From a virus, in UHGV virus genome UHGV-0124208: a stretch of 33,408 nt of DNA. One strand, written 5' to 3'. The stretch's first letter is position 1; every line of letters starts with the position of its first letter. Positions 1,281-31,745 of this stretch are shown piece after piece. The translations under genes were made by a program, and so were the position numbers. A model generated the notes under the pieces. The model was not told the DNA's origin and did no database searches. It saw only the letters and a list, made by a program, of their open reading frames with translations.

Positions 1281-2114
1281 ATGACAGTGAAAGCAAAGCG
1301 TTTTCGCATCGGGGTGGAAGGTGCCACCACCGACGGACGCGAAATCCAGCGTGAATGGCTGGAACAGATGGCAGCCAGCTACAACCCGGCGGTGTATACC
1401 GCGCTGATTAACCTTGAGCACATCAAGTCTTATCTGCCGGACAGCACCTTTAACCGCTACGGCAAGGTGACGGCGCTGTTTGCTGAAGAAATCACGGAAG
1501 GTCCGCTGGCAGGCAAGATGGCGCTGTATGCCGACGTTGAGCCAACGGAGTCCCTGGTGGAGCTGGTGAAAAAAGGCCAGAAATTATTCACCTCTATGGA
1601 AGTCAGCCCGAAGTTCGCTGATACGGGCAAAGCCTACCTGGTCGGCCTGGCTGCCACTGATGACCCTGCCAGTCTGGGCACTGAAATGCTGACATTCAGC
1701 GCCAGTGCAGCCCATAACCCACTGGCAAACCGCAAGCAGAATCCTGCCAATCTCTTTACCGCTGCAGAGGAAACGGTGATCGAACTGGAAGAAATCCAGG
1801 ACGACAAACCGTCCCTGTTTGCCCGTGTCACGGCGCTGTTTACCAAAAAAGATCAGTCCGATGACGCCCGGTTCTCTGATGTGCATAAGGCCGTGGAGCT
1901 GGTCGCCACTGAGCAGCAGAACCTGAGCGCACGCACCGAAAAATCCCTGTCTGAGCAGGAAGAACGCCTGTCTGAGCTGGAGACTGCCCTGCAGGCACAG
2001 CAAACCGCCTTTAACGAACTGGTGGACAAGCTGAGTCATGAAGACAGCCGCCAGGACTACCGCCAGCGTGCAACAGGCGGTAACGCCCCCGCTGACAGTC
2101 TGACCAATTGCTGA
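1281..2114 (+). CDS. O: Capsid scaffolding protein gpO
   Basis: 277-aa ORF directly upstream of the major capsid gene; position and size match P2 gpO (about 284 aa). Confidence 0.85.
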   Translation: MTVKAKRFRIGVEGATTDGREIQREWLEQMAASYNPAVYTALINLEHIKSYLPDSTFNRYGKVTALFAEEITEGPLAGKMALYADVEPTESLVELVKKGQKLFTSMEVSPKFADTGKAYLVGLAATDDPASLGTEMLTFSASAAHNPLANRKQNPANLFTAAEETVIELEEIQDDKPSLFARVTALFTKKDQSDDARFSDVHKAVELVATEQQNLSARTEKSLSEQEERLSELETALQAQQTAFNELVDKLSHEDSRQDYRQRATGGNAPADSLTNC

Positions 2115-2130
2115 TGGAGCACAAAACCCG

Positions 2131-3189
2131 ATGAAGAAGAATACCCGCTTTGCTTTTAACGCTTACCTGCAGCAGCTGGCGCGTCTGAACGGTGTGGCAG
2201 TTGAAGAACTGTCCAGCAAGTTCACCGTGGAGCCGTCTGTGCAGCAGACGCTGGAAGACCAGATCCAGCAATCCGCCGCTTTCCTGACGCTGATTAACGT
2301 CACGCCAGTGACCGAGCAGTCCGGTCAGCTGCTGGGGTTGGGTGTTGGTAGCACCATTGCCGGAACCACTGACACCACCGCGAAAGAGCGTGAACCTGTC
2401 GATCCTACGCTGATAGTCGATGTGGAATACAAATGCGAGCAGACCAACTTTGACACGGTGCTGACCTACGCGAAGCTGGACCTGTGGGCGAAGTTTCAGG
2501 ATTTCCAGGTGCGTATTCGTGACGCGATCGTGAAACGTCAGGCACTGGACCGCATCATGATCGGCTTTAACGGCGTGAAGCGTGCGAAAACCTCAAACCG
2601 TAGCGAAAACCCGCTGCTGCAGGATGTGAATAAAGGCTGGCTGCAGAAAATCCGTGAGGATGCACCGGATCACGTCATGGGCAGCACCACCACGGGCGGT
2701 GAAACCACACCGGGTGCGGTGAAAGTCGGGAAAGGTGGCGAATATGCCAACCTGGACGCCGTGGTGATGGATGCCGTCAATGAGCTTATCGACGTGGTCT
2801 ACCAGGACGATGACGATCTGGTGGTGATTTGCGGTCGTGAACTGTTGTCTGACAAGTATTTCCCGCTGGTCAACAAAGAGCAGGAGAACAGTGAAAAACT
2901 GGCTGCAGATATGATCATCAGCCAGAAACGCATGGGTGGCCTGCAGGCCGTGCGTGCGCCGTTCTTCCCGCCGAATGCGCTGCTGATCACCCGTCTGGAT
3001 AACCTGTCCATCTACTGGCAGGAGGATACCCGCCGCCGTTCAGTTATCGACAACCCGAAACGTGACCGGATTGAAAACTTTGAATCCGTTAACGAAGCCT
3101 ATGTGGTTGAGGACTACCGCTGCGCCGCACTGGTGGAAAACATCCAGATTGGCGACTTCAGCGCCGCCGCAGCAGAAACCGGAGCGTAA
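2131..3189 (+). CDS. N: Major capsid protein gpN
   Basis: 352-aa ORF (P2 N is about 357 aa); translation contains stretches I recall from P2 gpN (e.g. KFTVEPSV, DLWAKFQDFQVRIRDAIVKRQ, AADMIISQKR). Confidence 0.9.
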   Translation: MKKNTRFAFNAYLQQLARLNGVAVEELSSKFTVEPSVQQTLEDQIQQSAAFLTLINVTPVTEQSGQLLGLGVGSTIAGTTDTTAKEREPVDPTLIVDVEYKCEQTNFDTVLTYAKLDLWAKFQDFQVRIRDAIVKRQALDRIMIGFNGVKRAKTSNRSENPLLQDVNKGWLQKIREDAPDHVMGSTTTGGETTPGAVKVGKGGEYANLDAVVMDAVNELIDVVYQDDDDLVVICGRELLSDKYFPLVNKEQENSEKLAADMIISQKRMGGLQAVRAPFFPPNALLITRLDNLSIYWQEDTRRRSVIDNPKRDRIENFESVNEAYVVEDYRCAALVENIQIGDFSAAAAETGA

Positions 3190-3192
3190 TCC

Positions 3193-3843
3193 ATGAGCCT
3201 GAGTCCCGCACGGCAGCATCGCCTGCGCGTTCAGGCTGAACAGGCCGCCCGCGAGGGCGGCAGCGTTCGCCACGCGTCGGGCTATGACCTGATGCTGCTG
3301 CAACTGGCGGAAGACCGACGCCGTCTCAAGGGTGTTCAGTCCACGGTCAAAAAAGCGGAAATCAAAGTGGAGCTGCTGCCGAAGTACGCCGCCTGGGCGG
3401 AGGGTGTTCTGGCTGCCGGAGGCGCTCAACAGGATGACGTGCTGATGTACGTGATGCTGTGGCGTATTGATGCCGGAGATTATGCCGGGGCGCTGGAGAT
3501 CGGGCGTCATGCCCTGCGTCATGGCTGGGTGATGCCGCTGGGTAACCGCAACGTGCAGACCGTGCTGGCAGAGGAAATGGCAGACGCGGCACAGAGCGCA
3601 ATGCTTGCCACTACCGGCTTTGATGCCGATCTGTTGCTGCAGACGCTGGAGCTGACAGACGGTCTGGATATGCCGGACCAGTCACGGGCGCGTCTGCATA
3701 AAGCGATTGGCGCTGTCCTGAGTGAAAGTAATCCGGCTTCCGCCCTTAATCATCTCAACCATGCGTTACAGCTCGATCCCCGCTGTGGCGTGAAAAAAGA
3801 CAAACAGCAGCTGGAGCGCAGACTGCGCAATGACAGCCGCTGA
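3193..3843 (+). CDS. M: Terminase small subunit / endonuclease gpM
   Basis: 216-aa ORF after N; contains MYVMLWRIDAGDYAGALEIGRHAL, which resembles the P2 gpM core as I recall it. Confidence 0.8.
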   Translation: MSLSPARQHRLRVQAEQAAREGGSVRHASGYDLMLLQLAEDRRRLKGVQSTVKKAEIKVELLPKYAAWAEGVLAAGGAQQDDVLMYVMLWRIDAGDYAGALEIGRHALRHGWVMPLGNRNVQTVLAEEMADAAQSAMLATTGFDADLLLQTLELTDGLDMPDQSRARLHKAIGAVLSESNPASALNHLNHALQLDPRCGVKKDKQQLERRLRNDSR

Positions 3844-9584: not shown

Positions 9585-11044
9585 GCACAAAATTTTATAC
9601 CCTGCTGACGGATATTGGCGCGGCGAAACTTGCCAGCGCCGCCGCGATCGGTGTGCCGCTAAAAATTACCCATATGGCGGTGGGCGATGGCGGCGGAGTA
9701 TTGCCAACGCCGGACGCAAAGCAGACGGCACTGGTAAATGAGAAACGCCGGGCTGCGCTGAATATGCTTTATATCGACCCGCAGAATAGCAGCCAGATTA
9801 TTGCTGAACAGGTGATCCCTGAAAACGAGGGCGGTTGGTGGATACGTGAAGTGGGCCTGTTTGATGAGTCAGGGGCATTGATTGCCGTGGGGAACTGCCC
9901 GGAAAGCTATAAACCGCAACTGGCTGAAGGCAGCGGGCGTACCCAGACCGTGCGCATGGTGCTGATTACCAGCAGTACGGACAATATCACACTGAAAATT
10001 GACCCTGCCGTAGTGCTGGCAACCCGCAAGTATGTGGATGATAAGGTACTGGAGCTGAAGGTGTACGCGGATGATCAGATGGCAAAACATCTTGCCGCAC
10101 CGGACCCGCATTCACAGTATGCGCCAAAAGACAGCCCGACGTTTACCGGAACCCCCAAAGCGCCAACGCCAGCGGCGGGGAATAATACTACGCAGCTTGC
10201 GACCACCGCGTTTGTTCAGGCGGCACTGACGACCCTGATTAATGGTGCGCCAGCCACGCTGGACACGCTGAAAGAAATTGCCGCAGCCATTAACAATGAC
10301 CCGAAATTCAGTACCACCATTAACAATGCGCTGGCACTGAAAGCGCCGCTGTCGAGTCCGGCACTCACCGGAACGCCAACCGCACCTACTGCGGCACAGT
10401 CGGTCAACAATACACAGATTGCCACCACGGCATTTGTGAAATCGGCGATTGCGGCAATGGTGGGTTCTGCACCTGCGGCACTGGATACACTGAACGAACT
10501 GGCGGCGGCGCTGGGGAATGACCCGAACTTTGCCACGACAATGCTTAATGCACTGGCAGGTAAACAACCGCTGGACAATACGCTGACTAATTTGAGTGGA
10601 AAGGATGTAGCTGGTCTTCTCACATACCTTGGTTTAGGAGAAGGCTCTGCATTACCCGTAGGTGTGCCTGTTCCGTGGCCTTCAGTCACACCGCCAACAG
10701 GCTGGCTGAAATGCAACGGTGCAGCTTTTTCTGCCGAAGAGTATCCGGAACTGGCAAAAGTTTATCCGACAAATAAATTGCCAGATTTACGCGGCGAATT
10801 CATTCGTGGGTGGGATGATGGAAGAGGAATTGATTCAGGACGGACTCTCCTGTCTGCTCAGGACGGGAGCATTGAGGCACACGGCCATGATTACAATGGG
10901 GTCATCTATACTTCTAGCGGTCCTTCCTGGGCTAATACGACGGATGCGGGACACCGGGCATATTCGGGATTTACATCATCATATGGCGGAAGCGAAACCC
11001 GTCCACGAAATATTGCATTTAACTATATCGTAAGGGCTGCATAA
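9581..11044 (+). CDS. H: Tail fibre protein gpH; the C-terminal receptor-binding tip (from about residue 351) lies inside an invertible segment
   Basis: 487-aa ORF; N-terminus MSTKFYTLLTDIGAAKLA... is P2 H-like; internal about 73-aa tandem repeat; crossover site at 10617-10642 within the coding sequence. Confidence 0.85.
   Translation: MSTKFYTLLTDIGAAKLASAAAIGVPLKITHMAVGDGGGVLPTPDAKQTALVNEKRRAALNMLYIDPQNSSQIIAEQVIPENEGGWWIREVGLFDESGALIAVGNCPESYKPQLAEGSGRTQTVRMVLITSSTDNITLKIDPAVVLATRKYVDDKVLELKVYADDQMAKHLAAPDPHSQYAPKDSPTFTGTPKAPTPAAGNNTTQLATTAFVQAALTTLINGAPATLDTLKEIAAAINNDPKFSTTINNALALKAPLSSPALTGTPTAPTAAQSVNNTQIATTAFVKSAIAAMVGSAPAALDTLNELAAALGNDPNFATTMLNALAGKQPLDNTLTNLSGKDVAGLLTYLGLGEGSALPVGVPVPWPSVTPPTGWLKCNGAAFSAEEYPELAKVYPTNKLPDLRGEFIRGWDDGRGIDSGRTLLSAQDGSIEAHGHDYNGVIYTSSGPSWANTTDAGHRAYSGFTSSYGGSETRPRNIAFNYIVRAA
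10133..10573 (+). repeat. Tandem duplication (2 x about 73 codons) inside tail fibre H
   Basis: Protein residues 185-257 (SPTFTGTPKAPTPAAGNNTTQLATTAFVQAALTTLINGAPATLDTLKEIAAAINNDPKFSTTINNALALKAPL) and 258-331 (SSPALTGTPTAPTAAQSVNNTQIATTAFVKSAIAAMVGSAPAALDTLNELAAALGNDPNFATTMLNALAGKQPL) are clearly homologous. Confidence 0.85.
10617..10642. promoter_or_regulatory. Hin/Gin-type 26-bp inversion crossover site inside H (left boundary of invertible segment)
   Basis: TTCTCACATACC-TT-GGTTTAGGAGAA: imperfect dyad with a 2-bp core, same layout as hix/gix/cix sites; the right half encodes G-L-G-E in the H frame. Confidence 0.7.
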
Positions 11045-11646
11045 TGGATAACGCCGTATTAAATAGCGAGATTATTGCCACGAAGGCGGGGAATATTACC
11101 GTCTATAACTATGATGGTAAAACTCGGGAATATATTTCTACTTCAAATGAATATCTTGCCATTGGTGTCGGTATCCCTGCATATTCCTGTTTAGATTCAC
11201 CAGTTACACGTAAAGCTGGTTATGCAATCTGCCGTTCTGCAGATTTTAACTCATGGGAATATGTGCCAGATCATCGCGGTGAAATCGTTTTTAGCACCGA
11301 AACAGGAGAATCAAAAGAAATCACAGCACCAGGTGATTACCCTGAAAATACAACCACTATCGCCCCGTTAACGCCATACGATGAATGGGATGGTGAGAAA
11401 TGGGTGACGGATACCGAGGCACAGCATAGCGCCGCAGTAGACGCGGCAGAAGCACAGCGCCAGTCGCTGATTGATGCTGCAATGGCTTCCATTAGTCTGA
11501 TTCAGCTGAAATTACAGGCCGGGCGGAAGCTGACGCAGGCAGAAACCACCCGGCTTAACGCCGTGCTTGATTACATTGACGCGGTGACGGCAACAGATAC
11601 GAGCACCGCGCCGGATGTCATCTGGCCTGAACTGCCGGAGGCGTAG
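11044..11646 (+). CDS. G: Tail fibre assembly chaperone gpG (paired with the currently expressed H tip)
   Basis: 200-aa ORF overlapping the H stop (TAATGG); ends ...DVIWPELPEA, the typical Tfa C-terminus. Confidence 0.8.
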   Translation: MDNAVLNSEIIATKAGNITVYNYDGKTREYISTSNEYLAIGVGIPAYSCLDSPVTRKAGYAICRSADFNSWEYVPDHRGEIVFSTETGESKEITAPGDYPENTTTIAPLTPYDEWDGEKWVTDTEAQHSAAVDAAEAQRQSLIDAAMASISLIQLKLQAGRKLTQAETTRLNAVLDYIDAVTATDTSTAPDVIWPELPEA

Positions 11647-12058
11647 GCCATTCAATATCTGGCGCACCGGAAGTATCGACCAGTTCCAGTGCGTCCAGAT
11701 AATCCAGCCACAAATTATATTGCGCCAGTTCGTCACCTTTCAGACGACCAATAGCCGCTTTACCAGGCCATTGTTTACTGTTCATATAATCGTTGGCCTG
11801 ATTAATCAATTGCTGCTTTTCCAGTTCGGCTGCAGCAATCTGTTCCTCATGTGTTGGTGGTGGAATTTCAGACCATGCAGGAAAACCATTTTCTCCAGCG
11901 ATACGGATTTTTCCTTTCGGCGGTAATCCGGAAAACTCAATATACACCTGCTCATCAACTTCAACAGCATCATCTGGCCATGAGTCAGCTTGAGTGTAAT
12001 CCTCTTTCATCTCCAGCGGATAGAAAGAGTTTGTAGTCGCGGAATATATATAATTCAT
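11618..12058 (-). CDS. Alternative tail fibre assembly chaperone (G'), paired with the silent alternative H tip
   Basis: 146-aa minus-strand ORF convergent with, and overlapping, G; ends ...APDIEWPTPPAVQAR, the same Tfa C-terminal signature. Confidence 0.75.
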   Translation of the reverse strand: MNYIYSATTNSFYPLEMKEDYTQADSWPDDAVEVDEQVYIEFSGLPPKGKIRIAGENGFPAWSEIPPPTHEEQIAAAELEKQQLINQANDYMNSKQWPGKAAIGRLKGDELAQYNLWLDYLDALELVDTSGAPDIEWPTPPAVQAR

Positions 12059-12079
12059 TTCTCATTCCATATAGCTAAA

Positions 12080-12472
12080 TTAACAGCCTAACGCTAAAAA
12101 TGAAGCGCCGAGACCTGGAGTACCGGCTCTGGATATAAATTTAACCGGGTCGGAACTAAAACCTGCACAGGCAATATAACCAACAGCCCCGCTATCTGGT
12201 GTGTAGTCTTGTGAGACCAAAACACGCAGACATCTGTTCGGAAATGCAATCGGGAAATGGGTTACCACATCCTGTGCAATGCCTGGAGTGCTGATTGAGC
12301 CCCACTGAAGAATCAAACCAGATGGTAATTTTTGATATCCAGTACCTGAAACAGAAAGCGTGAAGCTACCCATATCAGGTATCTGATTCGCCCCTGTCCC
12401 CACATTCCTTTTTGCCGCTTCTCCCAAACCAACGTTTATGAAAATGCAGAGATAACGGCTAACTGGCATCAT
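12080..12472 (-). CDS. Alternative tail-fibre C-terminal tip segment (Hv'), promoterless; would fuse in frame to the H constant part after inversion
   Basis: Minus-strand ORF whose N-terminal region spans the 12419-12444 crossover site and encodes the same G-L-G-E junction as H; no independent start is expected (the ATG at 12472 is probably fortuitous). Confidence 0.65.
12419..12444. promoter_or_regulatory. Hin/Gin-type 26-bp inversion crossover site (right boundary of invertible segment)
   Basis: TTCTCCCAAACC-AA-CGTTTATGAAAA; its reverse complement aligns with the 10617 site (core TT, flanking half GGTTTGGGAGAA vs GGTTTAGGAGAA). Confidence 0.7.
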
Positions 12473-12499
12473 CTCCGGTTTTTATTCAGGGGGATGATC

Positions 12500-13066
12500 A
12501 TGCTTATTGGCTATGTACGCGTGTCAACAAATGACCAGAACACCGATTTGCAACGCAATGCACTGAACTGTGCGGGATGTGAGCGGATTTTTGAGGATAA
12601 AATCAGTGGCACCAAGTCCGACAGACCGGGGCTGAAAAAGCTGCTCAGGACACTATCGGCAGGAGACACGCTGGTTGTCTGGAAGCTGGACAGACTGGGG
12701 CGCAGTATGCGGCATCTTGTTACGCTGATAGAAGAGCTGCGCCAGCGTGGCGTGAATTTCCGAAGCCTGACTGACAGTATTGATACCAGCACCCCAATGG
12801 GCCGTTTCTTTTTTCATGTCATGGGTGCCCTGGCTGAAATGGAACGCGAACTGATAGTTGAACGTACCAGGGCGGGGCTGGCTGCAGCTCGTGCTAAAGG
12901 CAGAGTAGGTGGACGCCGTCCTAAGTTGACCAGCGAACAGTGGGCACAGATTGGGCGTTTACTCGAGGCCGGAGAATCAAGACAGCGTATTGCACTGATT
13001 TTTGATGTAGGCGTTTCTACCATTTATCGAAAATTTCCGGCAAATAAGAACAATAAATCTCCCTGA
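12500..13066 (+). CDS. Site-specific DNA invertase, serine recombinase of the Gin/Hin/Pin/Cin family
   Basis: MLIGYVRVSTNDQNTDLQRNAL...GDTLVVWKLDRLGRS...MGRFFFHVMGALAEMERELIVERT... is near-identical in motif content to Gin/Hin as I recall them (catalytic Ser in YVRVS). ATG 12500 chosen over 12494 for spacing to the GGGGG RBS. Confidence 0.9.
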   Translation: MLIGYVRVSTNDQNTDLQRNALNCAGCERIFEDKISGTKSDRPGLKKLLRTLSAGDTLVVWKLDRLGRSMRHLVTLIEELRQRGVNFRSLTDSIDTSTPMGRFFFHVMGALAEMERELIVERTRAGLAAARAKGRVGGRRPKLTSEQWAQIGRLLEAGESRQRIALIFDVGVSTIYRKFPANKNNKSP

Positions 13067-20355: not shown

Positions 20356-20520
20356 CGCTGCCGCCATTTTGTCGCCATCGTTAAAAAACAGTGCTTCTAA
20401 CATCATGATCTTAAACACCATAAATTTCAGGCAACAAAAAACCCATTTATGTAAACGGGTTAATGAAAACAATAAGTTAGAGTAAAAACAATAAGTTGGG
20501 TTGGTGGTCAGTGGTGGTTA
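20356..20520. other. Probable attP region between ogr and int
   Basis: AT-rich non-coding segment in the P2 attP position. It contains a near-palindrome ACCCATTTATGTAAACGGGT (20441-20460) and tandem AAAACAATAAGTT repeats (20466-20478, 20484-20497). It is flanked by a 21-bp direct repeat (20357-20377 and 20540-20560). The core itself is not identified. Confidence 0.5.
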
Positions 20521-21573
20521 TTACGGGGTAATGCCAACCGCTGCCGCCACTTTGTCGCCACTTGGCAGCGTTGCCAGAGGATTGAAACGGAGCGCCGTTT
20601 CCAGATGATCTGGTGCCAGATGTGCGTAACGCATAGTCATTTTTATATCGTGGTGTCCGAGAATTTTTTGTAAGGCGAGAATGTTTCCACCCGACATCAT
20701 GAAGTGCGCCGCAAACGTATGGCGCAGAACGTGTGTGAGTTGACCGCGAGGGAGCACGATAGACGTTTTTTCCATCACGGATAAAAATTGAAAATAGCAG
20801 TCTGTAAAGAAATTGAACCCATCAAGCGCCATGATCTCTTCGTAAAGCTCTTTACTGATAGGGATGCTTCTGTTTTTCTTCCCCTTCGTTCTGACAAAGG
20901 TAATTCGGTATTTGGTCACCTGTGAGCGGGTAAGATTTACGGCTTCACGCCAGCGTGCGCCTGTGCTTAAGCATATCTTAACTACCAGTGCCAGAATTGG
21001 GTCCTGACGTTTGCAATCAGCCAGCAATTCAACAATCTGCTCATGGGTAAGCCATGCCATCTCTTTTTCTGCGATGGTGAATTTTCGCATGTTCTCCAGT
21101 GGGTTCGGATACGACCATTCGCCCAGACGGGATAGTTCGCTAAAAACACTACTTAGATAGCTTTGCTCCAGGTTAATGGTGACCGGGCTTGCTCCTTTCT
21201 TCCATTTCTCGCTGAAGTAGATCTCGCCTGTCAGGCGTTTATCTCGATAGTGGGCAAACATTTTAGAGGTGAGATCGGTTGCAAGAGGATTACCCAGAGC
21301 GTCAACCATCAACAGCAATTTGTCATAGACATGCTGCCCAGCTGTCAGAGATTTACCATGTAGTTTGAACCATAGCTCAACCACGTCTTTCAGTGTTCGA
21401 CGATCCACTGATTCACCCAGCCAGGGCTTTGCTTCGGTTTCTTCTATCGTGTGGCGCTCAAAAGCCAGAGCTTCGCCTTTGGTGGCGAATTGTTTACGCA
21501 CCCGACGCCCACTACGTCCGGCGGGGTAACATTCGCAAAGCCATTTTCCTGTGGTGAGTTTTCGTACTGCCAT
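20521..21573 (-). CDS. int: Tyrosine integrase
   Basis: 350-aa minus-strand ORF; the C-terminus has HVLRHTFAAHF...GHHDIKMTMRYAHL (the R..HxxR..Y tyrosine-recombinase signature); adjacent to attP as in P2. Confidence 0.9.
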   Translation of the reverse strand: MAVRKLTTGKWLCECYPAGRSGRRVRKQFATKGEALAFERHTIEETEAKPWLGESVDRRTLKDVVELWFKLHGKSLTAGQHVYDKLLLMVDALGNPLATDLTSKMFAHYRDKRLTGEIYFSEKWKKGASPVTINLEQSYLSSVFSELSRLGEWSYPNPLENMRKFTIAEKEMAWLTHEQIVELLADCKRQDPILALVVKICLSTGARWREAVNLTRSQVTKYRITFVRTKGKKNRSIPISKELYEEIMALDGFNFFTDCYFQFLSVMEKTSIVLPRGQLTHVLRHTFAAHFMMSGGNILALQKILGHHDIKMTMRYAHLAPDHLETALRFNPLATLPSGDKVAAAVGITP

Positions 21574-21597
21574 AAAAAAGCCCTCATGTCAGAGGGC
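21574..21597 (-). terminator. Intrinsic-terminator-like hairpin plus U6 on the minus-strand transcript, ending immediately 5' of the int start codon
   Basis: Plus strand aaaaaa-GCCCTC-atgtca-GAGGGC; on the int-sense RNA this is GCCCUC-UGACAU-GAGGGC-UUUUUU-AUG. The 3' arm also contains the only SD-like sequence (GAGGG) for int. Confidence 0.55.
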
Positions 21598-21646
21598 TAA
21601 ATTTAACTGTATGTTTGACCAGTGGTCAATGTATGTAAATATTAAA

Positions 21647-23416
21647 TCATACGTCAGGGGTAATCCAGTCGACTAAAGCCTCAATACTTTCGAAATCTGC
21701 ACAGATATCTGAAAGAGGTTGTGTATCTGCTTTTGTTTTGAAATCAGCCCATACTGATTCATTTTTTTCTGTAAGACCCAAATGGTTTTCTATCGAACCA
21801 TTTAGCCAAATCCAAATATTTGCATTTCTCAGTTTTGCGGCTAATGATGACAAAAATTCTCTGGCGCCGGGCTTTTGAGACATAATAGCAAATGCTTCAG
21901 CTGCGGTAGTGTTACTACCCTTTGTAGGCAAACCGGATCCATCGAGAGTGCATTCTCCATTAGCATGCATACTTCTCAAGATTTCTTTTAGTCGTAAAAT
22001 ATCCTCGTCATTATGTTCTAAGAAGTTGTTCCTTATTGCACCGCGGAACGCAAAATCTAAATCAACAATTGCTTTTGTAGGTATATCCATTGAATTTAGA
22101 ATTTGCATCGTTTTAGATATACTTTCAACGGACCCTGTTTCAATTAGTGCTATTTGCATCTGACCTAATGTTTTATTTTTAACTTTGTTAAAAATAAATG
22201 GGAGCAGAGTAGTCTCTGTTTTACCTTCTGTTAGTATTACATTGTTAGCAAACAAAACTTTTGAAGACTGTGTTAATGAAAATAAATGGGTTGCTTGTGC
22301 TGGTCGTTGTTCGATTACTTTATTGACTGCTTCTTTTAATGTTAATCTGCAATGAGTGCCACGCTGACTGTTTTTTCTGATTAACACAGTGTCTTTTGCT
22401 AAGTCAGAGGTAATCATTTGAGATGAATGGGTAGAGAAAATTATTTGATATCCATGATGAGATAGTGTTTTTAGAGATTCTCTAATTTGTTCGATAGCAA
22501 ATGGGTGAAGATATAACTCAGGTTCATCTATTAACAGTAGAGTAGTTGTTTTAATATCATCACCGTTGGTTATATCAGCTAAATGTCTTATTAGAGACAT
22601 CTGAATCGAACGCTGTGTGCCATGACCATAAGAAGAACAGTCACGAGCAATGCCGGGAAATGAATCTTCATATACTTTTACAGTCCCAGATTTAAATATA
22701 TCCTTGAAGTCAGGGAGTTCGAAGTGTAGTTTTAAACTTATCCCAGGGAAGAAATCAGCAAGTTTACTACTTATTGAATCATCAATATCATTGAGGTCCG
22801 ATATTCGTTTATTACCGGTTGCAGTCATTCTTCTATTAACGGCATTTAAATGGCTTAGTATCCTTTGAGTGTGCTTCTCTTCTATTTTGCAACTCAATTC
22901 TGCCAGCAACTTACCTATTGTAGTTCCTGTTTTTGATTTTGAAGAATCATCCGCTGCATTTTCCATTGCACCTATACGTATTGGGTCTGGAAATAAAGCT
23001 TTTATCGCATTCTCAATACCCGTTGGTGATGTCCTGAATTCGTTATTTTCTGGGTTTTTAATTAATAATCTGACGTCTTTTGCACTTTGAGCACCAACAG
23101 TCTGTTGACGCTTAAATATCAATACCCCATCAATAATGTAGGGTGAAATTCTAGTTCTGTTTTCTTCTGTTAAAGCTGACAAAATATCTTCAGTAATACC
23201 CTTAACTGTACCTATAACTTCTATAGGGTTATCTGGATTAGTATAATCATCAGAGGACAAAAGTTTTTTCTTAAAAAGCCATTCAATAGCATTTAAAATC
23301 GTTGACTTACCAGCATTGTTGTAACCGATTAAAGGCGTGAATGAAGAAAAATTGATATCAATATCTTTGCAAGATCTAAAGTTTTTTATAGAAATCTTTG
23401 AAAGATGATGATTCAT
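21647..23416 (-). CDS. old: OLD-family ATP-dependent nuclease (N-terminal ABC-type ATPase + C-terminal Toprim), P2 Old-like, single-gene
   Basis: 589-aa ORF. N-terminal Walker A in ISIKNFRSCK...LIGYNNAGKSTILNAI; central FGHGTQRSIQM and LLIDEPELYLHP (Walker B-like); C-terminal VILTEGKTET...VDLDF Toprim-like acidic motifs. AT-rich relative to flanks. Located between cI and int. Confidence 0.75.
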   Translation of the reverse strand: MNHHLSKISIKNFRSCKDIDINFSSFTPLIGYNNAGKSTILNAIEWLFKKKLLSSDDYTNPDNPIEVIGTVKGITEDILSALTEENRTRISPYIIDGVLIFKRQQTVGAQSAKDVRLLIKNPENNEFRTSPTGIENAIKALFPDPIRIGAMENAADDSSKSKTGTTIGKLLAELSCKIEEKHTQRILSHLNAVNRRMTATGNKRISDLNDIDDSISSKLADFFPGISLKLHFELPDFKDIFKSGTVKVYEDSFPGIARDCSSYGHGTQRSIQMSLIRHLADITNGDDIKTTTLLLIDEPELYLHPFAIEQIRESLKTLSHHGYQIIFSTHSSQMITSDLAKDTVLIRKNSQRGTHCRLTLKEAVNKVIEQRPAQATHLFSLTQSSKVLFANNVILTEGKTETTLLPFIFNKVKNKTLGQMQIALIETGSVESISKTMQILNSMDIPTKAIVDLDFAFRGAIRNNFLEHNDEDILRLKEILRSMHANGECTLDGSGLPTKGSNTTAAEAFAIMSQKPGAREFLSSLAAKLRNANIWIWLNGSIENHLGLTEKNESVWADFKTKADTQPLSDICADFESIEALVDWITPDV

Positions 23417-23459
23417 TTTAGACTCCTCCAGTAAGTATTTAAAAGTAATGTCTGCAATG

Positions 23460-24398
23460 TTATTGTATTGTTAAGATAATGCTGGCTATAATTTGAATAT
23501 CCTCAATGGAACACTCAAAATCCTTACTCCCACCAGAAACAAGAATTTTGTTCTTAGGTAAACGAGTTAACTCTTTTAAAGATAACTCATTGTCAATTCC
23601 TACTAACCATTTTCCATCTCTAATTAGGTGAAATTCTTTATCACATATGACATGTTTTTCTCCATTGCTTACAAACATCAAGCTGCTAGTTTCTTGCTTC
23701 GGAAGTAGACACCGATCCATGGATAAAAAACCTGACTCGACAAGCACGCCATTGACCAAATTGAACTTATTTAAAATTACAGTGTTTTCTTCTTGTGAAC
23801 TATTTGGTGTTTCGATTCCTGTAACTAGCCAGGCGAGATCCGCTTTGGTTTCTAATGCGCATTTAATCACCCAATCCGCAGGGAAAGAATCTCGCATGTA
23901 TCGTGTGGCTAATGTGCTTTTTGAAATACCAAGGTGGTCGGCTAAGGCTTGGCGGGTTTTAAACCCGTAAGCATTAACAATCCTCTCTATCGCGGCTTTT
24001 CCTCCGTTAGTAAGCTCAATGTGATTCTCAATGCGGCGCTTAAAGGATGATTGATGAGCGTTGCTGTTAAACCCCTCATGTGGGACTGTTTCATCATGTT
24101 GTTCCACATAAGGGGGGAAACTTTCTTCTGCATTGTTAGAACCAAAGGCCAGCCATTCTAGGGATGCGCCAGTTTCCATTGAACATATAACAACCCAATC
24201 AGCAGGGAAGGTATCGCGTGCATATCTATTAGCCATTGTGCTTTGTGAAATACCAAGATGCTTACAGAAGGCTTGGCGTGATTTGAAACCATAGGCCTTG
24301 AGTATCCTCTCAATGACTTTTTGCCCTCCACGATTCTGCATGACCATAGCTTTCAGACTATCTTCAATATGGCGAAATGTGATTTTTTGAGTTGACAT
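23460..24398 (-). CDS. cI: Immunity repressor CI, coliphage 186 type, with a tandemly duplicated N-terminal DNA-binding domain
   Basis: 312-aa ORF. Residues about 28-85 (VIERILKAYGFKSRQAFCKHLGISQSTMANRYARDTFPADWVVICSMETGASLEWLAFG) and about 128-185 (AIERIVNAYGFKTRQALADHLGISKSTLATRYMRDSFPADWVIKCALETKADLAWLVTG) are two copies of the 186 CI N-terminal domain motif; about 125-aa C-terminal domain. Divergent from apl-cII. Confidence 0.75.
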   Translation of the reverse strand: MSTQKITFRHIEDSLKAMVMQNRGGQKVIERILKAYGFKSRQAFCKHLGISQSTMANRYARDTFPADWVVICSMETGASLEWLAFGSNNAEESFPPYVEQHDETVPHEGFNSNAHQSSFKRRIENHIELTNGGKAAIERIVNAYGFKTRQALADHLGISKSTLATRYMRDSFPADWVIKCALETKADLAWLVTGIETPNSSQEENTVILNKFNLVNGVLVESGFLSMDRCLLPKQETSSLMFVSNGEKHVICDKEFHLIRDGKWLVGIDNELSLKELTRLPKNKILVSGGSKDFECSIEDIQIIASIILTIQ

Positions 24399-24420
24399 AT
24401 TCTTTATGTGAACCTATTCT
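24392..24420 (+). promoter_or_regulatory. Candidate rightward lytic promoter (pR-like) for apl-cII, overlapping the cI start codon
   Basis: TTGACA (24392-24397), 17-bp spacer, TATTCT (24415-24420); about 65 bp upstream of the apl ATG. Sequence-only call. Confidence 0.4.
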
Positions 24421-24485
24421 CCGTTTTGTGATGTTTTGTCACGATTAATACCGGCTCACCACAAGCCAATAGGAGATGTTGCATC

Positions 24486-24707
24486 ATGACCCCTAACATT
24501 TCAATAACTCTGAATACGCCACACGTCACAATTGAGCGTTATAGCGAACTTACTGGTCTTTCTATCGACACCATCAACGATATGCTGGCTGATGGTCGTA
24601 TCCCTCGCCATCGCCTTCGGAAAGACAAGAAAAGAGAAAAGGTAATGATCAACCTTGCTGCTCTTACCGTTGATGCACTTACTGATTGCAATGTTGTATT
24701 CAACTAG
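24486..24707 (+). CDS. apl: Apl/Cox-like small HTH protein (excisionase / lytic-switch repressor)
   Basis: 73-aa ORF, first gene of the rightward operon opposite cI; contains an HTH-like segment [24 protein letters not shown]. Confidence 0.7.
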
Positions 24708-24739
24708 TTCCATTTTGGGATGCATCAGGAGTGTCGACT

Positions 24740-25249
24740 ATGTTTGATTACCAAGTTTCCAAACATCCACATTTTGATGAAGCCTGTCGTGCATTTGCAC
24801 TGCGCCACAACCTGGTGCAACTGGCAGAACGTGCAGGCATGAATGTACAGATTCTGCGGAACAAGCTGAACCCAGCTCAACCTCATTTATTAACCGCACC
24901 AGAAATCTGGCTGCTTACCGATCTGACTGAAGATTCAACGCTGGTAGATGGTTTTCTGGCACAGATTCATTGTCTGCCATGTGTTCCGATTAATGAGGTA
25001 GCGAAAGAGAAACTGCCGCATTACGTTATGAGTGCAACTGCAGAGATAGGGCGTGTCGCGGCAGGTGCGGTTTCTGGCGATGTAAAAACCAGTGCAGGCC
25101 GTCGTGATGCGATCAGCAGCATTAACTCTGTTACACGACTGATGGCGCTGGCTGCTGTTTCATTGCAGGCCCGTTTACAGGCTAATCCTGCGATGGCGAG
25201 TGCAGTTGATACCGTGACTGGCCTCGGTGCCTCATTCGGTTTGCTGTGA
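24740..25249 (+). CDS. cII: CII-like lysogeny-establishment activator (186 CII family)
   Basis: From ATG 24740 (RBS AGGAG): [45 protein letters not shown]...[25 protein letters not shown]..., which matches 186 CII as I recall it; 169 aa. Confidence 0.8.
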
Positions 25250-29555: not shown

Positions 29556-29649
29556 TTACGCGGGTTAACAATTCGTGCTCTTAATAATACCAGGCATATC
29601 AGGCCGATGAACGTAAAAAAACGTTTTACATCAGTAAGATTATTATATA

Positions 29650-29665
29650 CTGTAAATATAAACAG
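29650..29665. promoter_or_regulatory. LexA operator (SOS box) upstream of the DinI/Tum-like operon
   Basis: CTGTAAATATAAACAG = CTGT-N8-ACAG with an AT-rich centre, flanked TA...TG (consensus TACTGTATATATATACAGTA); 43 bp upstream of ATG 29708; a -35-like TTTACA at 29625-29630. Confidence 0.75.
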
Positions 29666-29707
29666 TGGTTATGTATACAGTATTGTTTTGGTGTCATAGG
29701 AGGAAAG

Positions 29708-29896
29708 ATGCAGGACTATTTTTTGGAGTCTTTGAAGCTCCAGCGCATTGATTTTTTTCTTAAGCTTGTAGCGGCTAGTGAGTGTAGTGATGAAGAGAAG
29801 GGGCTGGCTCTGCAGTGGGTTTCTGAATTGACTGATGAACTCATGGCAAAAATCAGAAGCCACGAATACAACCGCTCAATGGATGTCATCAGCTGA
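29708..29896 (+). CDS. Small SOS-regulated protein, first gene of the Tum-like module (function unknown; candidate antirepressor component)
   Basis: 62-aa ORF with RBS AGGAGG, directly downstream of the LexA box. Confidence 0.55.
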   Translation: MQDYFLESLKLQRIDFFLKLVAASECSDEEKGLALQWVSELTDELMAKIRSHEYNRSMDVIS

Positions 29897-29906
29897 GGTG
29901 ACTTTT

Positions 29907-30140
29907 ATGCGCATTGAAATAATGATCGATAAAGAGCAGAAGATTAGCCAGTCTACCCTGGACGCACTTGAATCCGAGCTTTACCGCAATCTGCGCCCCC
30001 TGTATCCCAAAACGGTAATTCGCATTCGCAAAGGTAGCTCTAACGGTGTGGAACTAACCGGACTGCAACTGGATGAAGAAAGAAAACAAGTGATGAAAAT
30101 TATGCAGAAGGTGTGGGAGGACGACAGCTGGCTGCATTAA
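29907..30140 (+). CDS. DinI-family protein (Tum C-terminal-domain-like)
   Basis: From ATG 29907: MRIEIMIDKEQKISQSTLDALESELYRNLRPLYPKTVIRIRKGSSNGVELTGLQLDEERKQVMKIMQKVWEDDSWLH, which aligns by eye with E. coli DinI (MRIEVTIAK...; ...ILQETWESADDW). Confidence 0.75.
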   Translation: MRIEIMIDKEQKISQSTLDALESELYRNLRPLYPKTVIRIRKGSSNGVELTGLQLDEERKQVMKIMQKVWEDDSWLH

Positions 30141-30332
30141 GAAATGTTGCCCCCAGGAGGATTCATTCTGATGGGGGCTAGTTTGGGCAATGAGTGAAAT
30201 AAGGCGTAAGGTGGGCGGTTATTTTGATAAGTGATCGTCCGCTTTGTGTCAGAAGCAGAAGTGGGAGTGTCTGAGACTCTCTAAAAGTTGATGATTCACT
30301 TACAAAACCATTTTCCTGATGGATGCTTACAC

Positions 30333-30668
30333 TTACGAATGATCATTCTGTTTAGTCTTCATGAGAAAATCCCGAATCTTTGCCAAGTTTGAATTTTCGG
30401 GGATTGAATCCATGTACGGATCACGCTCAAACACTAATTGCTCAGATTCAACGAAAGCCTGCCACTCTACTGGGTCTAGCTCAAATCCCATTGCTGTCAT
30501 ATCACTTTCATCTTCCCCCTCGATCCAGTGGACTAAATAAAACAATTCATCATCAGGAGAATCATCCTCACCATCAACAATATCAACATCGGTTACAGTG
30601 ATACGTAGGGTGGGATCGATTTTTGAGACATAAATTCCTAACTGTGGTATAGGGGGAATATTGTTCAT
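30333..30668 (-). CDS. Highly acidic small protein of unknown function (accessory / moron gene)
   Basis: 111-aa minus-strand ORF with a strong RBS (AAAGGAGTTTCC before ATG); D/E-rich (e.g. DVDIVDGEDDSPDDE, EGEDESD); AT-rich; lies between the DinI-like gene and the putative cos site. Confidence 0.65.
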   Translation of the reverse strand: MNNIPPIPQLGIYVSKIDPTLRITVTDVDIVDGEDDSPDDELFYLVHWIEGEDESDMTAMGFELDPVEWQAFVESEQLVFERDPYMDSIPENSNLAKIRDFLMKTKQNDHS

Positions 30669-31047
30669 GGAAACTCCTTTTATTGGTGTTTGCTATTTGA
30701 ATAAAAATACGCCAAACAGAGTGTTAACTGTGAATATGGAAAGAATCGTTGTAAGTACCCCGCTTAGGTGTCCCATTCTATTTTAGAGGTTCTCGTGCAT
30801 ATGGATTATGTTATCTGAAAGTTAACTTCCGCTTCCCGTTCACAGCGAACATTCATCTTTGTAAACCCGTATGATCCGTTTTTCAAGTGGCCATTCAGAT
30901 ACGGATTTTCACTTCCTTGACAGTGCATGACTATGCTGCATGAAATCGCATGATCGATTGAGGATCGTCTTTGCTCAGATCCGCCAGAACTGGCGGGCTT
31001 TTGCTCATGTCATGCATGTGCATGAAAACCACTGCATAAAGCGGGCA

Positions 31048-31066
31048 GGCGTGGCGGGGATACGAG
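31048..31066. other. Candidate cos (cohesive-end) site
   Basis: GGCGTGGCGGGGATACGAG: the first 13 nt match the 19-nt cohesive end I recall for 186 (GGCGTGGCGGGGAAAGCAT; P2 GGCGAGGCGGGGAAAGCAC). Lies in the only sizeable non-coding stretch between A and Q. The last 6 nt differ, so the exact ends are uncertain. Confidence 0.45.
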
Positions 31067-31155
31067 CGCGCGCTGATGGGGGACGCAGTGCTTTTGGCAT
31101 AGTTATGAGGTAGAATTTCAAAATACTTTTTAGCGCTGTTGGAGGTATAGACAAA

Positions 31156-31701
31156 ATGGACGTTATAACTGGAGTTGCAGAGTTTTTTCGAAAAGTACCT
31201 GCAGCATTTCTTGTGGCTATTACATGTGTTTTAGGTCTTATACTTTTTCTGCCAGACTCTTTGGCAGTAAAAGTGGCTGTTGATGGCTTTCGTAATGAGT
31301 ATAGGATTTTTATTGGACCTGCATTTTTACTGTCTGTATCTTATTTAGTTGCAAGAGTCTATCTCTCTTTCTATGACTTACTTGGTGAAAGGCAGGCTAA
31401 GAAGGTACGCACTTCCTACCTTGAGAAGCTAACAGCAGAAGAAAAAGGATATTTAAAGTCTTATATTACCGAAGGTGTTAATTCACTTATGTGTGGGCCT
31501 GAGGATGGGGTCATGGGGGGACTTGTGGCTAAGGGGATTACTTATAGAGCCACCAGTGTTGGGGATATGATCTACGGTTTTGCTTTCAACTTACAGCCAT
31601 GGGCGCGTGAACATTTAGAGAAAAATAGTCATTTATTAGATGGGGCTATTGGGCGTGCAATGACTCCAAGAGAAAAATTAAACTTTAGATTGGGACGCTA
31701 A
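31156..31701 (+). CDS. Membrane protein with two N-terminal TM helices, unknown function (accessory gene between cos and Q)
   Basis: 181-aa ORF with RBS GGAGG; hydrophobic segments AAFLVAITCVLGLILFLP and IFIGPAFLLSVSYLVARVYL followed by a soluble domain; AT-rich; followed by a strong hairpin. Confidence 0.65.
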   Translation: MDVITGVAEFFRKVPAAFLVAITCVLGLILFLPDSLAVKVAVDGFRNEYRIFIGPAFLLSVSYLVARVYLSFYDLLGERQAKKVRTSYLEKLTAEEKGYLKSYITEGVNSLMCGPEDGVMGGLVAKGITYRATSVGDMIYGFAFNLQPWAREHLEKNSHLLDGAIGRAMTPREKLNFRLGR

Positions 31702-31730
31702 CCAGTCACACATTACCAATGTGTGACTGG
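31702..31730. terminator. Perfect 13-bp stem / 3-nt loop hairpin between the convergent 181-aa gene and Q (putative bidirectional terminator)
   Basis: CCAGTCACACATT-acc-AATGTGTGACTGG read directly, followed on the plus strand by a T-rich run (TGGTGGTTATTTCTTTTATT). Confidence 0.6.
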
Positions 31731-31745
31731 TGGTGGTTATTTCTT

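Follow-up and report, generated by a model that had tools for sequence, protein, structure and literature searches.

Phages P2 and 186 keep their repressor and integrase genes side by side, as the first-pass annotation of the present DNA had stated, with a 115-bp gap in P2 and a 1-nt overlap in 186. In the viral genome UHGV-0124208 (33,408 nucleotides, analysed whole and hereafter called the window), an additional gene lies between cI and int, which raises the question of what it encodes, how it is expressed and what purpose it serves. The answer that we consider probable is that this gene, old, encodes a stand-alone Class 1 OLD enzyme, a divergent homolog of P2 Old, carried as single-gene cargo in the cI–int slot of a 186-like (Peduoviridae) E. 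coli phage, where it would be expressed in lysogens and act in abortive defence.

Organization of the locus

The features of the region are as follows:

20521–21573, minus strand: int, tyrosine integrase, 350 aa (Int_N and Phage_integrase in Pfam)
21574–21646, minus strand: conserved int leader, which bounds the cargo slot at a fixed point on the int side
21647–23416, minus strand: old ORF, 589 aa (ORF listing, PADLOC Old, Pfam, P2 Old alignment, AF2 model)
23417–23459, minus strand: cI–old spacer, 43 bp, carrying the old ribosome-binding site GGAGG
23460–24398, minus strand: cI, immunity repressor (186 type), 312 aa; a tandem pair of Phage_CI_repr HTH domains and a single Phage_CI_C domain
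24392–24420, plus strand: putative pR, early lytic promoter, TTGACA-17-TATTCT (consensus scan and 186 annotation)
24476–24504, minus strand: putative pL, lysogenic promoter, TTGAAA-17-CAACAT (placed relative to the apl ATG as in 186)
24486–24707, plus strand: apl/cox-like excisionase-repressor ORF, 73 aa ('regulator' or 'Cox' in sibling records)
24686–25249, plus strand: cII (Phage_CP76 in Pfam)

The ORF listing places int, the 589-aa old ORF and cI in series on the minus strand, in one shared orientation. The AT-richness already attributed to old is evident in its GC content (35.2%, against 51.4% for the window, 48.7% for int and 52.7% for gpA), and the gene is of foreign base composition. 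The repressor matches Phage_CI_repr over two stretches (E = 1.5e-58) as well as Phage_CI_C, and an internal repeat is present within this double-HTH protein. A Pfam search with the apl/cox-like ORF returned no match. In 186-type phages, cII activates the establishment promoter. The prophage adjoins rcdA/ybjJ in E. coli genomes.

The earlier description of a single-gene system agrees with the ORF listing, in which old is the only ORF of at least 90 aa between cI and int; the gene is therefore without a helicase partner in that interval. Neither a helicase nor a reverse transcriptase nor a separate Toprim partner was found at the locus.

Assignment of the old product to the Class 1 OLD family

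The sequence of the old product identifies it as a Class 1 OLD-family ABC-ATPase/Toprim nuclease. In the profile search that the first-pass annotation had proposed, residues 3–585 aligned with positions 2–578 of the 578-position PADLOC Old profile (E = 6.3e-234, 776 bits), well ahead of AriA (120 bits) and the GajA models (70–98 bits). The two predicted domains were likewise recovered by Pfam, as N-terminal AAA_15/AAA_21 (AAA_15, E = 1.7e-33) and as OLD-like_TOPRIM at residues 388–454 (E = 1.5e-16). Comparison with P2 old by tblastn aligned 99% of the query at 36.6% identity; for the C-terminal 110 residues the figure drops to 18%. The protein belongs to a large proteobacterial clade whose members are 46–56% identical to it and 34–42% identical to P2 Old.

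The AF2 model (pLDDT 85) superposes over the entire chain on Thermus scotoductus (Ts) OLD (PDB 6p74), which ranks first among its PDB fold matches, followed by GajA and the retron-Eco8 OLD protein. The model contains a helical insertion at about residues 166–242, where pLDDT is lower (65–88) and identity to P2 Old is 36%.

To assess the active sites, the comparison took the 11 residues of P2 OLD that Schiltz 2020 had mutated and that proved essential there; 10 of them are kept in the old product, as K37, D297, H304, H330, E397, E401, D452, D454, E543 and K551. The ATPase motifs were scored as Walker A Lys, Walker B Asp-Glu, D-loop His and H-loop His; K37, D297-E298, H304 and H330 align with P2 K37, D299, H306 and H332. 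On the Toprim side, E397, K399, E401, D452, D454, E543 and K551 supply the catalytic Glu, the DxD motif, the metal-B acidic residue and the Lys. In an alignment of 122 homologs, all the mapped residues are invariant except K551, which is K in 121, and E298 is likewise E in 121.

The sole exception among the tested residues is the metal-B ligand D541 of P2, replaced by S541 in the window protein. This column holds A, S or T in 121 of the 122 homologs, so that Asp is specific to P2, and the D541A mutant of P2 OLD retains partial toxicity (Schiltz 2020). For both reasons, the substitution was rejected as an inactivating change.

Proposed mechanism

The mechanism reported for P2 OLD (bioRxiv 10.64898/2026.07.10.737580, PMC7049728) may be extended by analogy to the window protein. 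In a lysogen, Old would wait as an autoinhibited oligomer, the P2 type being a tetramer, until its ABC ATPase/dimerisation part sensed aberrant DNA made by a superinfecting phage, the candidate triggers being replication-origin ssDNA hairpins and unprocessed ends under RecBCD inhibition. The Toprim site would then open, host tRNAs (DNA, in the older view) would be cleaved, and the infection would be aborted. Both this tRNA- or DNA-cleaving mechanism and the defence activity itself are inferred. Trigger and substrate specificity may differ from those of P2, given the 37% overall identity and the far lower identity at the C-terminus.

It is possible, if the less probable option, that the protein and its defence role are as described and that the effector step is the cleavage of phage or host DNA by a 5′–3′ exonuclease or nickase, and not of tRNA. 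Cleavage of this kind has been measured in vitro for P2 OLD, Ts OLD and GajA, the last two being the best structural relatives of the window protein. Furthermore, Schiltz 2020 demonstrated metal-dependent degradation of DNA by a Class 1 OLD enzyme and an in vivo need for the same residues, and these are present here, except for D541. However, according to a 2026 preprint, neither phage nor plasmid DNA is broken down in vivo by P2 OLD, which instead cuts the anticodon arms of a subset of tRNAs, with resistant phage tRNAs acting as suppressors. The sequence features do not discriminate between the two substrates, and the OLD target in vivo is still debated, the tRNase evidence coming from that preprint.

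Expression of old

The distance from the cI stop to the old ATG, given earlier as about 43 bp, is exactly 43 bp, with the GGAGG Shine-Dalgarno sequence 9 nt before the ATG, and the scan found no minus-strand terminator-like site in this gap. Over cI and the spacer as a whole, the scan likewise found no minus-strand terminator and no usable promoter. Lacking a usable promoter of its own and lying 43 bp behind cI with no terminator between them, old is most likely made from leftward lysogenic transcripts and would be co-transcribed with cI. These transcripts would start at pL in lysogens and at the cII-dependent pE during establishment. The consensus scan did not detect pL, which scores poorly against the sigma-70 consensus; the putative assignment follows its position, the same relative to the apl ATG as that of the annotated 186 pL. 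As in 186, the putative pR is convergent with pL.

We regard it as distinctly unlikely that old is expressed independently of cI, from its own promoter or from one in the 3′ part of cI, its position then reflecting an insertion site permitted by recombination and no regulatory coupling. P2 old does have its own promoter, with mapped old–tin mRNA starts, so that OLD genes need no repressor operon, and AT-rich cargo could hide promoters below the scan threshold. The one weak promoter-like match in the gap (TTTAAA-17-TAAAAT, 23443–23415) was rejected as the old promoter, since its −10 element overlaps the old ATG and the transcript would have neither start codon nor Shine-Dalgarno sequence. No further promoter-like site was found on the minus strand from the cI start to old, and such matches are no commoner in the region than in shuffled sequence (13 against 11.4 ± 3.6). 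Homologs in other genera keep gaps of 20–52 bp to cI, which also counts against independent expression.

The placement of old in a lysogenic operon, as first annotated, stands as regards the tight cI–old junction; the annotation overlooked a terminator-like hairpin that follows the old stop and precedes the int ATG, which makes a free run into int improbable. The int leader contains a promoter-like sequence (TTGACC-17-TTAAAT, 21629–21600) and, at 21598–21579 on the minus strand, the hairpin AGCCCTC-N6-GAGGGCT, followed by T6 into the int ATG; the int Shine-Dalgarno sequence (GAGGG) is part of its 3′ arm. The hairpin has a folding energy of −13.3 kcal/mol (z = −3.0), and in a second lineage a hairpin is kept although its sequence differs (−16.2 kcal/mol, z = −4.4). 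An Rfam search of the whole window found no known RNA family, so the hairpin does not correspond to a described one. The leader is kept in siblings that carry other cargo. With this conserved element and the int Shine-Dalgarno sequence within it separating old from int, transcription of the operon probably does not continue unhindered into int, and leftward transcripts would mostly be stopped or attenuated before it.

The cI–int cargo slot in sibling prophages

Where sibling prophages share this int and cII, the slot holds PD-Lambda-1, a KAP NTPase, an AriA/Old-like ATPase/Toprim protein or hypothetical genes, and one near-empty slot has just a 63-aa ORF. Roughly 1,300 E. coli genomes carry this int/cII family, and in a spread sample (1,328 E. 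coli genomes) the span from int to cII varies between 2.9 and 5.1 kb. Homology of the flanks breaks off near 21640 on one side and at 24386 (or 23848) on the other. The interval is a variable cargo site with conserved flanks and mostly defence-type, unrelated cargo. No direct repeats were found around old, and nothing hence indicates that it arrived by transposition or by site-specific insertion; an exchange of cassettes through recombination within the conserved flanks is the better reading.

The identical cI–old module is present in 14 of 5,426 genomes, from unrelated sources and at 99.6–100% identity. The cI–old–int order recurs in four enterobacterial genera, with Old identities of 83% in Citrobacter, 77% and 52% in Klebsiella michiganensis and 62% in Serratia among the loci found elsewhere. 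A peptide-pattern scan of representative genomes yielded two distant, uninformative loci only. In the second K. michiganensis case, the double-HTH cI (50% identity) and the adjacent Old (52%) have diverged almost equally. An obligate link between a double-HTH cI and Old was nevertheless rejected, because Old homologs at 62–83% identity follow ordinary cI genes of 185–189 aa.

The first-pass annotation held that this locus does not usually figure in lists of P2 defence hotspots, a view that is out of date. According to the accessible text of the three sources, a cI–int hotspot was described in P2-related Vibrionaceae phages (Rousset 2022, PMC9122126), a third P2-like hotspot adjoining CI was reported in 2024 (iLund4u preprint, 10.1101/2024.10.15.618418), and 8% of P2 defence systems lie between integrase and primase (NAR 2026, PMC13586616). 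Within that accessible literature, no Old homolog is named specifically between cI and int, and the bounding int-leader hairpin is not mentioned.

It is very unlikely that Old serves its own phage or prophage, either through an addiction-like penalty on recBC-deficient or cured cells or in the control of replication or recombination. P2 Old does kill recB/recC hosts, OLD homologs have been reported to regulate replication in archaea (10.64898/2026.07.10.737580), and homologs adjoin int in integrative elements of unrelated kinds, among them a Vibrio island and a Pf-like filamentous prophage. However, sibling slots carry the validated or candidate defence genes listed above, and old has the low GC content usual in accessory genes that are exchanged. 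In most siblings the slot is without cargo, and they are widespread prophages even so, which indicates that old is dispensable for the phage life cycle. That old is an inactive remnant is scarcely credible, as its frame is full-length, every ATPase and Toprim motif other than the D541 ligand is intact, the Ser at that position falls within the A/S/T range of the homologs, and the module is nearly invariant across its 14 genomes.

Defence cargo expressed with the repressor is thus the preferred reading of old. A broader proposal, which we put forward with considerable doubt, joins three elements: in 186-like phages, the interval from cI to the hairpin would form an insulated slot dedicated to expression in the lysogen alone; the OLD clade occupying it would have a different trigger or substrate than P2 OLD, in view of its 37% identity, divergent C-terminus and missing D541; and the matched divergence of cI and Old in K. 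michiganensis would reflect long-term co-inheritance of a repressor–defence module. If the slot were so insulated, any cargo between the cI stop and the int-leader terminator would be expressed together with the repressor from pL/pE, shut down once pR/Apl take over at induction and kept from driving int.

Comparison with known systems

The find is correct but fairly ordinary, since the gene family and the cargo slot have both been described already, and by itself the gene opens no new question, being recognised by standard tools such as PADLOC. Its value is that of a well-bounded E. coli example added to a recently described minor hotspot, and of a divergent natural variant with which the generality of the newly proposed OLD mechanism, in which tRNAs are cleaved once aberrant or replicating DNA has been sensed, can be tested.

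Among Class 2 OLD systems, Gabija GajA shares the ATPase–Toprim fold. However, old has no UvrD-like GajB helicase ORF, its neighbours are cI and int, and the GajA matches are partial and about eight-fold lower than that to Old, for which reasons a Gabija identity was rejected. PARIS was also rejected: the best AriA stretch covers only residues 126–335 (two stretches, 120 bits, against 776 for Old), and there is no second gene. The ATPase and the Toprim (DUF4435) nuclease of PARIS are normally separate polypeptides; single-gene fusions occur, so that the fused architecture alone would not exclude this system. Similarly, a retron Eco8-type OLD effector was rejected on a score of 60.8 bits to NCBIfam retron_eff_Eco8 (cut-off 250), with no reverse transcriptase ORF and no Rfam match.

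Ts OLD, the structural prototype of Class 1, is the best PDB sequence match (E = 2.2e-13) and the best fold match (E = 4e-22, TM 0.55/0.62), apparently with the same three-part architecture. It is chromosomal and shares 16% identity with the window protein. Ts OLD has been reported to be dimeric and to have variant Walker B and Q-loop residues, whereas the window protein has the canonical D297-E298 and Q105.

P2 Old, named 'Old' in PADLOC and Old_exonuclease in DefenseFinder, is a Class 1 OLD nuclease of nearly the same length (about 586 aa, against 589), collinear with the window protein over 99%. Both combine an ABC ATPase bearing a helical insertion (predicted in the window protein) with a Toprim domain, and both genes are single-gene lysogenic-conversion cargo of P2-family temperate phages. 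The differences lie in sequence (37% identity overall, 18% in the C-terminal 110 residues, S for D541) and in context: the P2 gene lies between gpA and the portal gene beside cos, while the window gene lies between cI and int, with neither a tin partner nor a usable promoter of its own. The conserved flanks and varied cargo of the window's siblings are those of the P2-type cI–int (int–primase) hotspot. P2-family phages have thus acquired members of the Old family at two different cargo sites, beside cos with its own promoter in P2 and behind the repressor in the window.

Gene Layout of the cI–int Interval

In the window, three consecutive genes lie on the minus strand:

20521-21573, minus strand: int, 350 aa, first of the three
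21647-23416, minus strand: old ORF, 589 aa, middle of the three
23460-24398, minus strand: cI, 312 aa, last of the three

The cI stop codon is 43 bp from the old ATG, which has a GGAGG box 9 nt on its 5´ side. The GC content of old is 35.2%, compared with 51.4% for the window and 48.7–52.7% for int and gpA. ORF listing and GC computation confirmed the coordinates, length, orientation, spacing and AT-richness described in the first-pass annotation. It was also right that the repressor and int genes adjoin each other in related phages: cI and int overlap by 1 nt in 186 and the two genes are 115 bp apart in P2, whereas old is inserted between them in the window.

Identification of Old as a Class 1 OLD Nuclease

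Profile searches bore out the proposed OLD/Toprim assignment. The N-terminal portion matches AAA_15/AAA_21/AAA_23 and residues 388–454 match OLD-like_TOPRIM in Pfam, while the PADLOC Old model aligns positions 2–578 of its 578 with residues 3–585 (E = 6.3e-234, 776 bits). The only full-length match by tblastn among phage records is P2 old (36.6% identity over 99% of the query). An AlphaFold2 model (mean pLDDT 85, from 42 homologs) matches, best first, the Class 1 OLD of Thermus scotoductus (6p74, E = 4e-22), GajA and the OLD subunit of retron-Eco8 in the PDB, and a sequence-level PDB search agrees with this ranking.

The sister systems fit less well. PARIS is disfavoured by the far better score of the Old profile, since AriA, GajA and other ATPase–Toprim models in PADLOC reach at most 120 bits. 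The GajA scores and the lack of an adjoining helicase gene dismiss Gabija. A retron-Eco8 effector is rejected in the same way: no reverse transcriptase gene is found, Rfam detects no ncRNA in the window, and no NCBIfam family exceeds its cut-off (retron_eff_Eco8, 61 bits against 250). No separate Toprim gene adjoins old among the window ORFs either, in agreement with the earlier view of a single-gene system. Because of these profile, fold and no-partner results, together with the residues described below, the product of old corresponds in every testable respect to a stand-alone Class 1 OLD nuclease, its activity being predicted. The Old family is the founder of the OLD/Gabija/PARIS group.

The residues required for the killing of recBC cells by P2 OLD were identified by mutation (Schiltz et al. 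2020). In pairwise and 122-sequence alignments they map to K37, D297, H304, H330, E397, E401, D452, D454, E543 and K551 of window Old, all invariant in the family save K551 (K in 121 of 122). The sole exception is P2 D541, replaced by S541. This column holds A in 104 sequences, S in 15, T in two and D in P2 only, and P2 D541A kept partial toxicity (Schiltz et al. 2020); the aspartate is therefore a P2 peculiarity, and S541 is not a lesion.

The protein collection contains 1,858 relatives at E ≤ 1e-20. A wide range of ~585-aa proteins of Gamma- and Betaproteobacteria share 46–56% identity with window Old but only 34–42% with P2 Old. Window Old thus typifies the main clade, and P2 Old is the outlier. 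The two phage lineages gained their OLD genes independently, at different sites.

Expression Signals and the cI Repressor

A consensus scan of the 43-bp cI–old gap detected no minus-strand terminator, as the first-pass annotation had stated. The only promoter-like match in the gap, TTTAAA-17-TAAAAT (23443-23415), has a −10 element overlapping the old ATG, and therefore would yield no translatable old mRNA. Upstream, two putative promoters occupy, relative to the apl ATG, the positions of annotated 186 pL and pR:

24504-24476, minus strand: putative pL, TTGAAA-17-CAACAT
24392-24420, plus strand: putative pR, TTGACA-17-TATTCT

Since the scan found no other minus-strand promoter-like site between putative pL and old, leftward lysogenic transcripts are most likely the source of old mRNA.

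Between old and int, a 73-bp leader (21574-21646, minus strand) is conserved in all sibling phages and prophages, whatever their cargo. It comprises a promoter-like TTGACC-17-TTAAAT, a hairpin (AGCCCTC-N6-GAGGGCT; −13.3 kcal/mol, z = −3.0) and a T6 run abutting the int ATG. A second lineage (Klebsiella phage 4LV2017 and an E. coli locus, L005) has, at the corresponding position, a hairpin of different sequence (−16.2 kcal/mol, z = −4.4), and a Serratia locus has a weaker one without the T-run. Because int has no SD-like sequence other than GAGGG, which lies within the 3´ arm, the hairpin could terminate cI–cargo transcripts, mask int translation, or both. The proposed lysogenic operon is thus retained as, most likely, a bicistronic cI–old unit, with int insulated from it by the hairpin and T6.

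Window cI carries two tandem Phage_CI_repr HTH domains, ~52% identical, and one Phage_CI_C domain, with a DNA repeat inside the gene (23848-24005 / 24172-24329), whereas 186 cI has one HTH domain. Double-HTH repressors of 307–313 aa also occur in 4LV2017, two E. coli loci (L005 and Tig207) and K. michiganensis (50% identity); in EPEC E2348/69 a repressor of this type follows an ordinary cI of 189 aa.

A Cargo Slot between cI and int

The same int/cII family is found in ~1,328 genomes. In a spread sample of these, the int-to-cII span is 2.9–5.1 kb and the annotated cargo includes DUF4041/SNIPE proteins, KAP NTPase, AAA ATPases, DUF2971, Panacea-domain and hypothetical proteins. Individual siblings carry:

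vB_EcoM-813R9 and KP12: PD-Lambda-1 (E = 3e-120)
EPEC E2348/69: KAP NTPase
E. coli isolate Tig207, locus positions 1431-3413, minus strand: 660-aa ABC-ATPase with AriA/Old-like profile matches and a Toprim-like EGxT motif
Klebsiella phage 4LV2017: one unknown gene
E. coli 98193 and 2024CK-00475: two unknown genes
APEC E18006: a 63-aa ORF only

The Tig207 ATPase sits behind a 311-aa double-HTH cI and gives a single local alignment with window Old (25% identity, 159 residues). Sibling homology extends from int to ~21640 and resumes at the cI start (24386) or within cI (23848), and no direct repeats flank old; these breakpoints indicate that recombination in the conserved flanks swaps cargo, often along with some or all of cI.

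Three other genera share the cI–old–int order, with a cI–old gap of 20–52 bp; their Old proteins are 83% (Citrobacter freundii), 77% and 52% (Klebsiella michiganensis) and 62% (Serratia) identical to window Old. Outside these genera, Old homologs of 52–54% identity adjoin integrase genes: in Pseudomonas aeruginosa within a Pf-like filamentous prophage (L016, 5001-6761), and in Vibrio within an island (L018, 5001-6737) that also carries an Mrr/nSTAND3 protein. Integrase-adjacent Old therefore recurs beyond P2-like phages.

Phage Genome and Host Context

Joining the ends of the window (33408/1) restores a minus-strand, 591-aa terminase-like ORF; the window is therefore a complete, circularly permuted 186-like genome, and a prophage cut at att is ruled out. 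The usual order is kept: gpD, ogr, attP, int, cI, apl, cII, Dam methylase, gpA and the portal gene. Direct repeats of 22 nt, CGCTGCCGCCAyTTTGTCGCCA, lie after ogr (20356-20377) and within the 3´ end of int (20539-20560), an arrangement reminiscent of the Int arm sites P and P´ on either side of attP in P2. After the tail-fibre gene, a resolvase-type DNA invertase (12494-13066, plus strand) lies beside opposite-strand ORFs (11618-12058 and 12080-12472), and the arrangement at 11044-13066 resembles an invertible segment for host range. The corresponding prophage in E. coli genomes adjoins rcdA/ybjJ; the exact cI–old module is present in 14 of 5,426 complete genomes, under the RefSeq name "ATP-dependent nuclease".

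The canonical gpA–portal hotspot (29556-31745, 42% GC) contains three ORFs, none with a PADLOC match:

29835-30140, plus strand: DinI-like protein
30333-30668, minus strand: unknown 111-aa ORF
31156-31701, plus strand: SieB-like superinfection-exclusion protein

The phage may carry exclusion genes at two sites, this hotspot and the cI–int slot.

Mode of Action and Comparison with Known Systems

According to a 2026 preprint (10.64898/2026.07.10.737580), P2 OLD forms an autoinhibited tetramer through a dimerisation insertion, and its triggers are ssDNA hairpins of phage replication origins or, if RecBCD is compromised, aberrant DNA; once activated, it cuts the anticodon arm off a subset of tRNAs, causing translation arrest. 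Window Old keeps the common architecture and the catalytic residues, so the same sequence of events, from autoinhibition through DNA triggering to removal of the tRNA anticodon arm, is the most likely action by analogy with the family. The main alternative is that window Old cleaves DNA rather than tRNA. Triggers and targets may differ from those of P2 OLD, given the 37% identity and the divergent C-terminus.

The claim that the locus is not normally listed among P2 defence hotspots did not stand. A cI–int hotspot is described in P2-related Vibrionaceae phages (Rousset 2022, PMC9122126), a third P2-like hotspot borders CI (iLund4u preprint, 10.1101/2024.10.15.618418), and the integrase–primase interval holds 8% of P2 defence systems, with some systems found at more than one hotspot (2026 NAR survey, PMC13586616). 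In the available text of the literature searched, no Old homolog is named at the cI–int slot, so the combination is a new instance. It is not a new kind: the family, recognised by PADLOC, and the location, a hotspot, are both already known.
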